Program-made: the position numbers and the translations under genes | Notes under the pieces: model-generated | Told to the model about the DNA's origin: nothing | What the model saw: only the letters and a program-made list of their open reading frames with translations | Database searches by the model: none | Source of the DNA: a virus | Direction: 5' to 3' (one strand) | IMG/VR virus record: IMGVR_UViG_3300042898_001429 | Location: 1 to 64,000 of that record | Length of the DNA stretch: 64,000 bases | Part shown: positions 5,891 to 10,475 of the stretch, piece after piece | Position numbering within the stretch: position 1 is the first letter of the stretch | How the letters are laid out: each line of letters starts with the position of its first letter

Positions 5891-6151
5891 TTACCTAGTT
5901 TTAAGAGACTGGTTGATAAATCGTTGGTCATTTGAAAGGTTTATTGCGGTTTCATCCCGACCTGTCATTGGGCTTATCATTCCCTTGTCACCAAAATCCC
6001 TGCGCTCACGGTACTCATCCAACATACCTTGTGCAATATCAGGGGTAGATTTGAATGCAGCATTAGACTGTCTTTTAGCAATCAGTTGCGCTAAACGTGG
6101 TGTAGCACGGTAGTTGTCACCAAGGCGACGTCCTCTGTGGTCTGTTCCCAT
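5891..6151 (-). CDS. Small protein, leader family A (M.TDHRG...TPRL)
   Basis: N-terminus MGTDHRGRRLGDNYRATPRLAQ shared with paralogues; GGAG RBS. Confidence 0.75.
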   Translation of the reverse strand: MGTDHRGRRLGDNYRATPRLAQLIAKRQSNAAFKSTPDIAQGMLDEYRERRDFGDKGMISPMTGRDETAINLSNDQRFINQSLKTR

Positions 6152-6160
6152 CAGTTGCTC

Positions 6161-6358
6161 CTAACGCAAGTGTGATTCGTAGTTCGGAAAGCCTTCGGCT
6201 GACTGAACGTTGTATTGAATTTGCAACTCTTCTTTACGAACGGTTGCAGAAGTTGGGTCAACCACACCACCACGGTCTGGGGTAAGACCCTTAAACTTGC
6301 CGTCGCCTGCGCCACGTACAAGGTCCATATTCATGGAACGAGATTCATTAACTGCCAT
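6161..6358 (-). CDS. Hypothetical small protein
   Basis: 65 aa, AGGA RBS. Confidence 0.65.
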   Translation of the reverse strand: MAVNESRSMNMDLVRGAGDGKFKGLTPDRGGVVDPTSATVRKEELQIQYNVQSAEGFPNYESHLR

Positions 6359-6370
6359 ACTATAATCCTA

Positions 6371-6511
6371 TCATTTCTTTAGTTTTGATACTGGAACCCA
6401 TTGTTCCCCGACTTTTACATGCCGTTCAGATGTTCCTTCGGCATTTTTCATTACTTTAACCTCAAGCGGTGCTTTGGGAGCCTCTTTAGGAGACTCCTCT
6501 ACGCTTTTGGG
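6371..6511 (-). other. Putative -1 programmed ribosomal frameshift site and 44-aa extension frame
   Basis: C CCA AAA slippery heptamer (6511-6505), 7-nt spacer, stem-loop GGAGTCTC-CTAAA-GAGGCTCC; -1 frame open to TGA at 6371. Confidence 0.7.
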
Positions 6512-7977
6512 GAGGCTTCCTTCTTTGCCGCTGGCTTCTTTGCAGGTTCCTTTTTAGCAGGAGCAGGCTTAGGAGCCGCTTCTTTCTTTGCAGGAGCCTC
6601 TGCCTTTGGAGCAGCCTCTTTTTTAGCGGGGGCTGCTTTAGCAGGTACAACGGCTTTAGCGGGTGCTGGAGCAGGTGCGGCTGGTGCAGGGGATGTAGGT
6701 GTTGTAGCAGCCGCTGGCTTTGCGGGAGCGGGCGCTGGAGCAGCCGCTTGAGCGGGGGCTGTCTGTTGCGCTTGTGGTCCTGCTGGGCTAGTTCCTGGCA
6801 TTGGGGTTATCTGTGGCTGAGCCGCTTGCGTACGAGCAGGGGTACCCGCTGGTGTAGCAGGGGTAGCCGTAGGTGCGGGGCGTGGTCTAGTTGGATTAGC
6901 AGGTGCACCACTTTGGCGAGGAGCCGCTGTAGGTGGAGTAGCAGGAGCCGCTGCTGGTGCAGCAGGTGGAGTTGTATTATTCGTAGTTGTAGTCGTTGTA
7001 GACGAAGGACCTGTTTGAGTCAAGTCATTGGTCTTTCCCTGTTGGGAAGTTACTTTATTACCTGAACCAACATTGGTGGCACCCGAAGGGTTTTGACCTT
7101 TTGGTGTGGCTCCCATAGCCATACCACCACGGCGACCACTAGACAGGTCAGCACCTGATAGGTCATAGTCACCATTTTGAGTTGTTGTGGCGGTGGCATC
7201 TGCTTTTCCACCAGTTCCACCTTTCCCTCCAGCACCGCCTGCGCCACCAGCACCGCCTGCGGCTGCTTTGGCTTGACGAGCAGTACGTTGGCGTTGAGCC
7301 GCAGGGCTGTCTGATACTTGACCAGCAACACGTCCACCTGTACGGGGACGCTTGATGGCAGGGGTACCTGCACCTCCAGCACCTCCAGGAGCGGCACCAC
7401 CAGCACCACCTTTACCAGCAGTGGCTGTTTGTGAGGACTGTGGACCAAATGTACGAGATGATGCGTCAACGTTTGTACTGTTGTCCTGTTGAGCGCCAGC
7501 ACCAAGGATGCTTCCGCCTGTTTGTACGTTTCCTGTTTCTACATTTCCAAACGTGATATTTACACGACGAGAGTTGTCAGAGTTATTAATGTCCATGTTG
7601 CTCTGGGTTCCACCACGGCGCATTGAACGGCTACTTGCTGGCTGTGTAATAGACTGCTGAGCGTTATTGCCTGCGCCACCCCATGCTTGGGAGATAGAAC
7701 TAGTGCTTCCTGCGACTGGTGCTGTGCCTGAACGACCCATGCTGTTGCCTGCACCATAATTTGTTTGCTGAGGGATGCCATAGTTTGGCTGTCCACCAAG
7801 GTTTGGTCCTTGACGTGGTCCCATTTGTGAACGTGGTTGACCAGTTGGTAGTTGACCTACTGGCGCTTGTGTGCCTAGTCCTGTGTTAAAACCAAACGAA
7901 CGCTGGCGAGCACCTTGCTGTTGCTGGTAATCAAACACTTGCTGTGCTTGCTGTTGGCGGTAATCATTAATAGCCAT
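6499..7977 (-). CDS. 492-aa low-complexity (Q/G/A/T/P) disordered protein with a histone-H1/HupB-like PAKK tail
   Basis: Composition; repeated PAKKE/AAPK units at the C-terminus. Confidence 0.8.
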   Translation of the reverse strand: MAINDYRQQQAQQVFDYQQQQGARQRSFGFNTGLGTQAPVGQLPTGQPRSQMGPRQGPNLGGQPNYGIPQQTNYGAGNSMGRSGTAPVAGSTSSISQAWGGAGNNAQQSITQPASSRSMRRGGTQSNMDINNSDNSRRVNITFGNVETGNVQTGGSILGAGAQQDNSTNVDASSRTFGPQSSQTATAGKGGAGGAAPGGAGGAGTPAIKRPRTGGRVAGQVSDSPAAQRQRTARQAKAAAGGAGGAGGAGGKGGTGGKADATATTTQNGDYDLSGADLSSGRRGGMAMGATPKGQNPSGATNVGSGNKVTSQQGKTNDLTQTGPSSTTTTTTNNTTPPAAPAAAPATPPTAAPRQSGAPANPTRPRPAPTATPATPAGTPARTQAAQPQITPMPGTSPAGPQAQQTAPAQAAAPAPAPAKPAAATTPTSPAPAAPAPAPAKAVVPAKAAPAKKEAAPKAEAPAKKEAAPKPAPAKKEPAKKPAAKKEASPKA

Positions 7978-8285
7978 TAACTTGATAATCCTTGCATTGA
8001 GTAGCGACTGGAACCTTCAAAATCATCTGCAATAAAACCATTGCGAATCATTACTGGTGCGCCAGAGACCCACGAACGATAAGTTGGCGCAAACCTATCT
8101 GTGTTTAGAACGTCCATAATTCCCATTTCTTGCTTGGCAAAGCCACGGCTCTGAGGCATCAACTGTTGTGGAACAACTGGACGAATAGCCTGAATAGTGT
8201 CGTGGTCGGAGATAGCGTTCTTCAACGCCATATCTACAAGCATCTCTGAGCGAGATTGCCATGGTTTATATGGAACTTGAATCAT
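7977..8285 (-). CDS. Hypothetical protein
   Basis: TAATG-coupled on both sides. Confidence 0.7.
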   Translation of the reverse strand: MIQVPYKPWQSRSEMLVDMALKNAISDHDTIQAIRPVVPQQLMPQSRGFAKQEMGIMDVLNTDRFAPTYRSWVSGAPVMIRNGFIADDFEGSSRYSMQGLSS

Positions 8286-8949: not shown

Positions 8950-9179
8950 TAGTAGTGTCCTTTCTTCAGACGCTCTTCTTTAAGTGTTTGTTCTTCCTGA
9001 ATGTCTTCAGGGTCCCAAGGGTCTAGTACTTCATCGGAGTTACCGACAAGACCTTTGACCATGTTGTTCATAGTCCAACCAGCAGGTGGTCCAGAAATGA
9101 AGTTTTCTCGGCTTACTTTGCGACCTTCGTGGTGCGCCTTGTCCTCTGCGAACGTTCCGTCGTCTCTATGTCCAGCCAT
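8949..9179 (-). CDS. Small protein, leader family B
   Basis: MAGHRDDGTFAEDKAHHEGRKVSR. Confidence 0.75.
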   Translation of the reverse strand: MAGHRDDGTFAEDKAHHEGRKVSRENFISGPPAGWTMNNMVKGLVGNSDEVLDPWDPEDIQEEQTLKEERLKKGHY

Positions 9180-9511
9180 TAGTCTCTCCTAGCGTCATTT
9201 GAAATTTGGCGCTCGTAATAATCGCCGTGCTCTGTTTCTTCACCCATACTTGGTGAGCGGTCATTGTCCCATGCTGGGTCACTCAAACTGCTAGGTGTTT
9301 TAAAACCATCGTAGGGGTCAAGATACGGAGAGCCAAGTGCATCAGGATTACCACCATTTTTGGTAATCTCATCTGCGTAACCTCGGAAACGCTCTGAATC
9401 TTTTTCTTTTTGAGTCTTGTACTTATTCCAGTTTTGAAGTGGTGTAGGTTGGTGCCCACCATGTGACGTGGCAGGGTTACCTACTGGGTTGCCTCTGTGG
9501 TCAGTAGCCAT
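9179..9511 (-). CDS. Small protein, leader family A
   Basis: MATDHRGNPVG...PTPLQ. Confidence 0.7.
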   Translation of the reverse strand: MATDHRGNPVGNPATSHGGHQPTPLQNWNKYKTQKEKDSERFRGYADEITKNGGNPDALGSPYLDPYDGFKTPSSLSDPAWDNDRSPSMGEETEHGDYYERQISNDARRD

Positions 9512-9786
9512 TAGTAGCCGTTTCTTTCCATATAAAGAGCACTGTAAATTTGCTGTTCTTTGTCGGTAACTCCATGGTAAGTGCCTTTGCCATACTTGTC
9601 ACGCTCTTCACGGTAGGTATTAAGGTGCGCTTGTGCTTCACTAGGATGCACCTCTGGAGCATTCATATGTGACAGTGGACTTCCTCCACGGATGTCTTGT
9701 GTCATACGGCGAGCCATTACTTGTGCAAGACGTGGGGTGGCACGGTAGTTGTCACCAATTGGCATACCTCTGTGATTAGTACCCAT
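9511..9786 (-). CDS. Small protein, leader family A
   Basis: MGTNHRGMPIGDNYRATPRLAQ; also shares YRE.RD..G with 5891..6151. Confidence 0.75.
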   Translation of the reverse strand: MGTNHRGMPIGDNYRATPRLAQVMARRMTQDIRGGSPLSHMNAPEVHPSEAQAHLNTYREERDKYGKGTYHGVTDKEQQIYSALYMERNGY

Positions 9787-9983
9787 TATTTATCTGTTTC
9801 TGGGGTCATGAACACATCGTCTGATTCCCACTCATTTTGTGCTGGGCGACGAGTTGTATCGTGAGGACCGACGGCTTCGTCGTACAATTCATCTTGTCCC
9901 CTTCCATAGGTAAGTGTTTCAACGAGGGAGCGACCATGTCGGCGGTCTCCACCATCTGAGGCTTTACGAACTACATAGGCCAT
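9786..9983 (-). CDS. Hypothetical small protein
   Basis: Coupled 65-aa ORF. Confidence 0.65.
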   Translation of the reverse strand: MAYVVRKASDGGDRRHGRSLVETLTYGRGQDELYDEAVGPHDTTRRPAQNEWESDDVFMTPETDK

Positions 9984-9986
9984 TAT

Positions 9987-10475
9987 TTATCTCCAAGCAG
10001 GCATTAGGCTCTTAAAATAAGAGCGACGTTCAGGACTAATTGATACTGCTTGTTCATTGTCGGGGGTGGGAATACCACGTGGTCCAACTTTTCCATCATT
10101 TGTTAAACGAACTGGTTCTGCACCAGGAGGTGAGAACTTCTTTCCTTGTGATTCCAGCATGATGCCAGTCAAAGGGTTAAATTCAGCAGGCCAAACATAG
10201 TCACCAGGGTTTACACGTTCCCCTTTATGTACGCCTCTACTGTACTGACGAGCGTTAAGACGACTCATTGTTCCAAGTATTTTATCTTGGCGACGGTTAG
10301 ATGACATAGTGCCAAGGTAACCATCAGGGTGTGTGGTATCACCTTGAGAGCGGTAGCCAGAGATTAATTCATCTTTGCTAGAGCGCCATACGGGAGATGG
10401 ACCATACATGTTGTTAGGTACAGCACCAGGAGCCTCAGAAGGGTTACTCCATGCGGTAAATGTTTGCTGTGCCAT
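9987..10475 (-). CDS. Hypothetical protein (PDGYLGT..RRQDK, RGVHKGER motifs)
   Basis: Coupled 162-aa ORF. Confidence 0.7.
   Translation of the reverse strand: MAQQTFTAWSNPSEAPGAVPNNMYGPSPVWRSSKDELISGYRSQGDTTHPDGYLGTMSSNRRQDKILGTMSRLNARQYSRGVHKGERVNPGDYVWPAEFNPLTGIMLESQGKKFSPPGAEPVRLTNDGKVGPRGIPTPDNEQAVSISPERRSYFKSLMPAWR

Follow-up and report, generated by a model that had tools for sequence, protein, structure and literature searches.

In the first 64 kb of IMG/VR virus record IMGVR_UViG_3300042898_001429 (a record of 94.5 kb rated complete; these 64,000 nucleotides are referred to here as the window), a tandem array of small minus-strand genes encodes proteins that begin with short conserved leaders and continue into mostly unrelated bodies, and comparison with related phages establishes, at the level of sequence, that the leaders move between unrelated bodies. 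Seven genes of the array carry such sharply bounded N-terminal leaders, which fall into three classes within the window: A (with a long variant), B and C. The original prediction, made from the letters of the window, had named six of these genes, all of which are present with the coordinates given in Table 1; the seventh, headed by leader C, had been overlooked. The explanation preferred here, held tentatively and at a little below an even chance, is a tag-and-payload system, in which the leaders would be portable docking tags that bring small, mostly disordered proteins to a conserved partner. That the tags dock in some way is considerably more likely than the narrower and doubtful proposal that the tagged proteins are packaged.

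The pairing of a conserved leader with a variable payload, proposed from the window, holds across phages in both directions, since homologous bodies stand behind different leaders and one leader stands before tens of unrelated bodies. The body of gene A2 is 78% identical in P0087, where it follows leader B with the breakpoint at TPL, the exact end of the leader; the body of A1 is 61% identical in P0127, where leader B substitutes for the first 8 leader residues; and the body of the leader-C gene (motif YDEAxGP..RRP..EW..DVFMTPE) is found behind leader B in P0064, P0059 and L009 (all by BLASTP). A C-terminal piece related to that of A2 follows leader D in L015, and another body is headed by leader D in L015 and by leader B in P0112. 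The tail of the B1 body, LDPWDPED..KKGHY, follows leader E, a short form of B, in L032 and L035, a combination found on a distant 77.7-kb contig with five E genes, and leaders of class B or E also head bodies that are mosaics of B1 and B2 (P0075, P0114, P0150). Altogether, at least seven body clusters among 182 distinct tagged proteins carry two or more leader classes. The tagged proteins, here and in the related loci, are all 49-265 amino acids (aa) long with one body each.

The reverse relationship emerged from blind clustering of 1407 small open reading frames (ORFs) from 83 related loci, which gave 63 N-terminal clusters. A single body cluster accompanies 49 of the 63, as expected of ordinary gene families, whereas leader E heads 43 body clusters (96 members) and leader A 31 (45 members), followed by leaders F, B and G with 8, 6 and 5; short, low-complexity bodies inflate these counts, yet ordinary families still differ by a large margin. 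In profile searches of 5.8 billion proteins, a check of the kind that the original prediction had called for, leader A was recovered in 44 clusters, and leader B, counted together with its short form E, in 112; every one of these is metagenomic and unnamed, and many are on contigs of 85-95 kb.

Within the genome, the leaders stand out as discrete peptides. For the first 24 residues, scored without gaps against a background of 32,640 pairs of minus-strand ORFs from the whole 94.5-kb genome (mean -20.6, standard deviation (SD) 10.4), the B pair scored 113, the A pairs 72-96 and the pairs involving A2 23-29, the last being lower because of a 6-residue insertion; the leaders of the B pair and of three A genes are thus 9-13 SD over the genome mean. 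Local alignment against shuffled sequences gave z values of 6.6-22 for leaders within a family, and of less than 1.5 for most pairs of bodies once the leader was removed, in keeping with the claim that the bodies are unrelated. Alignment over the full length, which would have marked the proteins as ordinary duplications, was found only for A1 and A4 (z 8.6); A1 and A3 were borderline (z 2.5), and the other bodies were at background.

Ordinary paralogy, in which genes were duplicated, their disordered tails diverged fast and the N-terminus was kept for stability, as a degron or for expression, would fit the relationship of A1 to A4, the second motif of family A described below and the full-length orthologues of A3 in other phages. 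Divergence cannot, however, place unrelated leaders before bodies that are 61-78% identical, nor one leader before 31-43 body clusters, and the swaps largely refute this explanation. Its escape route would be for the swapped forms to be assembly chimaeras, which their recurrence in many independent clusters and contigs makes unlikely, and paralogy is left as a very improbable account of the array.

The extent of the leaders is also well delimited. Among 59 B proteins, information content stays at about 4 bits per position through residue 22 and is at most 1 bit after residue 24, and leader A ends at about residue 20, or at residue 26 in its long form. A bounded N-terminal leader, as originally described, is thus present, but the conservation of family A is not confined to the first 22 residues: in most members a second motif (AQxxLxxYRxxRD or AQxxIxAHRxG) follows at a distance of 20-40 residues, making the conserved part of A bipartite. 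Families A and B had been linked through a shared HR dipeptide; the similarity of their leaders is not significant in the shuffle test or by hhalign (E 0.41), and a common origin of the two was rejected on these grounds. Nor is the alternating order A-A-B-A-B a conserved property, as the near-identical relative L003 has A-A-B-B. To our knowledge, none of the functions that the leaders bring to mind (AT-hook, twin-arginine translocation signal, amino-terminal copper and nickel binding motif, FHA ligand or kinase site) fits all members.

Conservation of the leaders is a property of the peptide. Both DNA motifs reported for the leaders are present above chance (CCTCTGTGGTC in three exact copies and a 19-mer in two), but the leaders of paralogues within the genome are only 68-76% identical as DNA, with a proportion of synonymous differences (pS) of 0.5-0.9 versus 0.07-0.26 for nonsynonymous differences (pN). 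Because the synonymous sites are near saturation while pN is low, it is the peptide that is conserved and not the RNA or DNA, and recent gene conversion between leaders of the same genome is excluded; RNA-level, translation-coupling and gene-conversion causes of the conservation were accordingly ruled out. For the pair of A3 orthologues, the ratio of nonsynonymous to synonymous substitution rates (dN/dS) rises from 0.17 in the leader to 0.32 in the body. Judged from such substitution patterns, the leaders are demonstrably under stronger protein-level purifying selection than the bodies.

Genome alignments further establish, as far as the order and boundaries of homologous DNA can be read, that bodies, and also entire genes, are moved as cassettes whose junctions are conserved. 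The A3 gene is a precise 431-nt indel relative to the near-identical phage L003, from which it is absent, flanked on both sides by the direct repeat CTAATG that forms the stop-start junction, and in the relative L015 it occupies a different slot. At the last slot, occupied by A4 in the window, four phages conserve the leader DNA (92% identical between the window and L009) and an almost invariant 3' flank containing two hairpins and a ribosome-binding site (RNA fold -22.3 kcal/mol, z -3.1, in the window), around bodies that are unalignable. Contigs of co-occurring relatives from the same lakes align at leaders and flanks and skip the bodies, although these joints were seen at low stringency. 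The proposal that leader DNA doubles as a recombination handle is therefore partly supported: it is plausible between phages, whereas within the genome the leaders have diverged to the extent described above, and a role as a handle is, on this sequence evidence, not the reason for leader conservation. Many tagged proteins (window 5891-9786; L004, L006, L009, L015) end in G-x-Y or GY right before the stop codon. In the last slot, TAC-TAG belongs to the conserved 3' flank, and the window copy is prematurely stopped relative to L004, so this shared C-terminus may be a junction feature rather than a functional motif.

Table 1. Leaders, tagged genes, neighbouring framework genes and reference genes of the window
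Feature	Positions	Strand	Remark
SpoVS-family gene	10623..10913	minus	Upstream edge of the module; Pfam PF04232, E 6.9e-20
46-aa protein	10475..10615	minus	Very basic (pI 12); ends in GGLQ
162-aa framework protein	9987..10475	minus	Head of the array
Leader C (~24 aa)	9912..9983	minus	Heads 65-aa gene 9786-9983
Leader A, short form (20 aa)	9727..9786	minus	Heads gene A1 (9511-9786, 91 aa)
Leader A, long form (26 aa)	9434..9511	minus	Insert PxTSHGG; heads gene A2 (9179-9511, 110 aa)
Leader B (22-24 aa)	9108..9179	minus	MAGHRDDGTFAEDKAHH.GRKVSR; heads gene B1 (8949-9179, 76 aa)
Gene A3 (143 aa)	8518..8949	minus	Leader A at 8890-8949
Gene B2 (77 aa)	8285..8518	minus	Leader B at 8447-8518; C-terminal CxxC..CxxC zinc ribbon
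102-aa framework protein	7977..8285	minus	Closes the first array block
492-aa low-complexity protein	6499..7977	minus	Basic (pI 11); C-terminal AKKEAAPK-type repeat tail
65-aa framework protein	6161..6358	minus	Before the last slot
Gene A4 (86 aa)	5891..6151	minus	Leader A at 6092-6151; final array slot
Twin-hairpin intergenic flank with ribosome-binding site	5829..5890	minus	3' boundary of the last cassette
DpdA-like transglycosylase	3208-4665		
Major head protein (capsid)	45511-46599		PHROG scan
Scaffold	46634-47443		PHROG scan
Portal	47492-49180		PHROG scan
Large terminase	53298-54860		PHROG scan

The tagged genes belong to a stop-start-coupled run, as had been noticed, in which eight consecutive TAATG overlaps link the genes from the 46-aa gene down to the 492-aa gene, one of the eight junctions sitting just upstream of the leader-bearing genes. 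Leader C, with the consensus M[AG]YxVRxxSxGGDRRHxRSLxETL, is also found on proteins of 114-124 aa in L006 and L015. The description of the bodies as polar and probably disordered agrees with predictions for the seven proteins, all of which lie on the disordered side of the charge-hydropathy boundary and contain 12-22% hydrophobic residues, compared with about 30% in control proteins; the CxxC..CxxC ribbon was confirmed in B2. The array of a distant relative includes, amid its tagged genes, one for a 63-aa protein whose hydrophobic stretch resembles a glycine zipper (L035:2710-2901; L032 and L047 have it too); this is the only membrane-like member seen. None of the tagged array proteins matched a Pfam or PHROG family, searches against 50,697 phage records by megablast with the array and by tblastn with A1 gave no match, an ESM Atlas search with A3 returned nothing, and a scan for promoters and terminators remained at chance level.

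Conserved leaders, variable cores and a tandem order are also features of the precursor arrays of prochlorosins, and the tagged proteins could be precursors of this general type, that is, of ribosomally synthesised and post-translationally modified peptides, whose leader is recognised by a maturation enzyme while the core is modified and released. No maturase-type gene was, however, recognised nearby, where the genes encode SpoVS, RusA, a Cas4-type exonuclease, the DpdA-like protein, an epimerase and proteins without assignment. Furthermore, the bodies are 40-120 residues long, charged or polar, and poor in Cys/Ser/Thr patterns, with a zinc ribbon in only some of them, and some leaders head putative folded domains. 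Such a maturation system is extremely improbable.

Putative folded domains stand behind the D-type leader. A second tandem array at 78162-79347 of the genome (L037:14162-15347, minus strand) consists of three genes for proteins of 143, 145 and 104 aa, which begin with MSA[SR][DEN]H[LI]. Two of the three contain a ParB-like GHHR motif and have weak ParB-like PHROG matches (E about 1e-3). Next to them, a 103-aa protein (L037:16075-16386) has sub-threshold matches to PARP (PF00644, E 1.4e-4), ART-PolyVal and Tpt1. The neighbouring 242-aa protein (L037:15347-16075) shares a YHGT motif with it (genome ~79.3-80.4 kb), and the two may be a pair of small ADP-ribosyltransferases, judging from these motifs and matches. 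The presence of leader D on ParB-like GHHR proteins suggests that tags are also borne by small folded modules of the kind predicted to be injected along with DNA (PMC5512222).

Interleaved with the tagged genes are conserved untagged genes, which provide the framework of the locus. The 162-aa protein has 157 representative clusters and more than 571 IMG/VR loci. It is found in metagenome-assembled genomes (MAGs) of Lysinibacter and Nocardioidaceae, in genomes of Streptomyces, Kitasatospora, Nonomuraea and Saccharothrix, and in Streptomyces myoviruses. None of 104 members matched Pfam, and AlphaFold2 produced a model with almost no secondary structure (predicted local distance difference test score (pLDDT) 71, predicted template modelling score (pTM) 0.29), while the ESM Atlas gave sub-threshold leads only (PARP and Arr at 0.88). 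The 102-aa protein, with 69% mean column identity across 31 phages, is similarly modelled as non-globular (pLDDT 51, low pTM), and for both proteins nothing was obtained from Foldseek searches of viral and PDB libraries or from a profile search of PDB sequences. SpoVS was the sole Pfam or PHROGs match among the array and framework proteins.

The 492-aa protein has counterparts of 380-630 aa in most close relatives, and consists of a Q/N/G-rich start, GGAGG repeats, a T/P/A-rich stretch and the repeat tail, whose lysine, alanine and proline composition resembles the DNA-binding tails of actinobacterial nucleoid proteins. The 46-aa protein, kept in distant relatives, has a basic N-terminal half and a GGGQGG stretch, and its glycine-rich end recalls small protein modifiers, though the match is inexact. 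The 65-aa framework protein is present in 58 of the 83 related loci. In a prophage-like region of the Streptomyces sp. AD2-2 chromosome (L130:8021-8674), its homologue is the N-terminal part of a larger protein of 217 aa, for which several membrane helices are predicted, and Cas4-like, SpoVS-like and 162-aa-like genes follow the same order there. A cysteine-rich protein of 155 aa is another conserved untagged neighbour. In L015, a 230-aa protein made up almost entirely of P/K/N/Y/H-rich repeats (NPY..HPKK; L015:5493-6185) lies between the SpoVS and 162-aa genes.

Among cultured phages, only BRock (Borockvirus; NC_048650; PMC7453282), LuckySocke, Alone3, GiJojo and pSt2308 share both the DpdA-like gene (28-30% identity) and the framework module. 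The order in BRock is like that of the window: resolvase, SpoVS (gp51), the 162-like gp48, the 102-like gp47, a small basic protein, the 65-like gp45 and the 155-like gp42. By contrast, BRock lacks tagged genes as well as any long low-complexity protein, and its last slot, after the 65-aa-like gene, is filled by lysis enzymes instead. Since BRock keeps the framework without tags, the tagged arrays are additions to an older actinophage module, made at two slots prone to insertion. The occurrence of the 162-aa protein in actinobacterial genomes and MAGs, together with the restriction of cultured relatives to BRock-type Streptomyces myoviruses, makes the host very probably an actinobacterium.

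These framework proteins allow for a different role of the leaders, in which the 492-aa protein would form, with the 46-, 162- and 102-aa proteins, a DNA-associated assembly or condensate at the site of replication and packaging, to which the leaders recruit clients. The interleaving and translational coupling of tagged genes with conserved, basic and predicted non-globular proteins are consistent with such an assembly. Against it, BRock has homologues of the 162-, 102- and 65-aa proteins with neither tagged genes nor a long low-complexity protein, and many relatives with E-tagged genes have no recognisable low-complexity protein in the stretch examined. This arrangement of scaffold and clients is accordingly considered distinctly unlikely.

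The wider genome is that of a myovirus. Nearly all genes of the window lie on the minus strand, and PHROG scans identified a sheath (38614-40125), tube and baseplate in addition to the head genes, which stand in the order portal, scaffold, capsid with no protease between them. The replication and recombination block at 11-25 kb encodes a DNA polymerase, primase, helicases, a UvsX-like recombinase, a Cas4-type exonuclease and a RusA-like resolvase. Lake water is the habitat indicated by 9 sequencing runs from different studies, which hold more than half of the sampled words and are all labelled as such; contigs identical to the window are present in 4 of the 9. The ends of the record (1-237 and 94286-94522 of the full genome) form an imperfect mutual repeat of about 237 nt, with an exact match of only 109 nt, and represent a terminal repeat or else variants that overlap in the assembly. 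Two proteins of the tail-fibre region (60964-61452 and 62766-63851, minus strand) have similar N-termini (score 43; background -21 ± 10), and this shared end may be the docking end for alternative fibres.

In the tag-and-payload system preferred here, tags of several unrelated classes (A, which includes a long variant, B, which includes the short form E, C and D, joined in relatives by what are probably two more, F and G) would dock on a conserved partner, each body would carry its own function, and the set of payloads would change fast. By analogy with T-even phages, the partner probably belongs to the phage and lies on the route by which its DNA is packaged, whereby the tagged proteins would enter the next cell together with the DNA, and the basic, non-globular 162-, 102- and 492-aa neighbours are candidate receptors. 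The tags would thus resemble the T4 capsid-targeting sequence, but would stay uncleaved; no cleavage is proposed because a scaffold is present while a prohead protease is not detectable. Packaging by way of uncleaved tags is the leading candidate destination on account of the T-even precedent, the missing protease, and the link of leader D to ParB-like and ADP-ribosyltransferase-like proteins, and the exchange of leaders D and B on one body (P0112) was counted in its favour; it is nonetheless doubtful. Equally speculative is the fuller picture drawn from the same analogy, in which interchangeable uncleaved tags of several unrelated classes would allow a protease-less myovirus lineage of freshwater Actinobacteria to load a constantly changing set of small enzymes and disordered microproteins, either into the head or onto packaged DNA, with the non-globular proteins as receptors.

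Several observations weigh against this proposal. The array is outside the head module, between the recombination genes and the DpdA DNA-modification block, with the head genes about 35 kb away. No leader resembles the T4 capsid-targeting sequence or its L/I-x-E site, and no prohead protease family was matched in a PHROGs scan of 60 larger ORFs (119 aa and up, nine of them from the 23-34 kb replication/tail block), which left out window ORFs of about 119-150 aa and all shorter ones, so that a small or novel protease could escape it. No relationship between the leader classes could be detected, such that a single common receptor is not obvious, and several of them coexist in one genome. For the 162- and 102-aa candidate receptors, AlphaFold2 gave no fold, and the ParB-like and ADP-ribosyltransferase-like assignments are below curated thresholds.

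Some of the same observations would suit proteins that remain unpackaged in the infected cell, where the conserved N-terminus would itself be the active part, a short linear motif that binds a host hub such as a polymerase, chaperone-protease or nucleoid protein, while the tails tune affinity, make second contacts or reach other targets. The leaders are the most conserved part of these disordered, motif-assembled proteins, the array lies among genes of intracellular DNA transactions, and several leader classes per genome would fit several targets. Hard to reconcile with an active leader, however, are the bodies that remain 61-78% identical across phages while unrelated leaders are exchanged before them, and the occurrence of leader D at the head of putative folded ParB-like domains. 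A host-directed motif is therefore rated as unlikely.

Docking through portable tags has a precedent in the internal proteins of T-even phages, the one established case of diverse proteins with only a targeting leader in common, in which a highly diverse set of defence proteins has nothing in common but a capsid targeting sequence that is conserved (PMC3012670). As in the array, a short N-terminal tag is the sole shared feature of IPI, IPII, IPIII and Alt, the proteins are small and polymorphic, and the locus varies between phages; the T-even payloads are thought to act at the onset of the next infection (PMC3012670). The T4 tag is, however, a sequence of about 10 residues that is cut by the prohead protease at L/I-x-E and works through the scaffolding core (PMC3012670). 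By contrast, the array has at least five unrelated tags of 13-26 residues, with R-x-[TV]-x-R or HPxR at their ends in place of L/I-x-E, as well as disordered bodies and a locus beside recombination and DNA-modification genes. With no sequence relationship, cleavage site or protease in common as far as sequence comparison reaches, the array falls outside the T4 capsid-targeting-sequence family, but by analogy it may work like one.

Short, terminal, uncleaved and transferable peptides that dock unrelated cargo in a shell are also known from encapsulins, whose shells have the phage capsid fold, and from bacterial microcompartments. These cargo-loading and encapsulation peptides differ from the leaders in being usually amphipathic or of the GSL type, encoded beside the shell gene and of one class per system, and there is no sequence resemblance. 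As regards the movement of the genes, T4-type promoter/stem-loop cassettes similarly have short conserved flanks around shuffled ORFs, which seem to mediate modular exchange; in the array, the leader provides the 5' flank and the twin hairpin or CTAATG junction the 3' flank, and the 5' handle differs in being coding and conserved for its peptide. The polyvalent proteins, with a repertoire that includes ParB-like DNase, ADP-ribosyltransferase and zinc-ribbon domains and with a predicted entry into the host alongside the DNA (Iyer et al. 2017, PMC5512222), resemble the array as an arsenal of disparate small modules, and candidate modules of the first two kinds occur here, by weak assignments, with or beside D-tagged genes. 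In polyvalent proteins, 2-15 disparate domains are joined in one giant polypeptide (PMC5512222), whereas here they would be separate small tagged genes. No description of these leaders or proteins was found, every homologue being an unnamed metagenomic protein, and the combination of several unrelated interchangeable tags, disordered payloads and an actinophage setting without a detected protease is distinctive.

Whatever the destination of the proteins, the locus shows cleanly how peptide modules of phage genes are shuffled in the manner of exons. As address labels, if that is what they are, the tags provide a listing, from sequence only, of the proteins that a large and abundant group of uncultured lake phages sends to one place; more than 180 distinct tagged proteins were recovered, which may be injected with the DNA as counter-defence or takeover factors of the first minutes of infection. 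The mutual replaceability of unrelated tags would then amount to a natural experiment in the evolution of docking peptides, and, given a cultured host, the tags would become candidates for portable peptides with which to load foreign proteins. Should packaging prove true, the array would be a cargo system with multiple tags, one that stands apart from the T4 capsid-targeting sequence and parallels the polyvalent proteins unit by unit.

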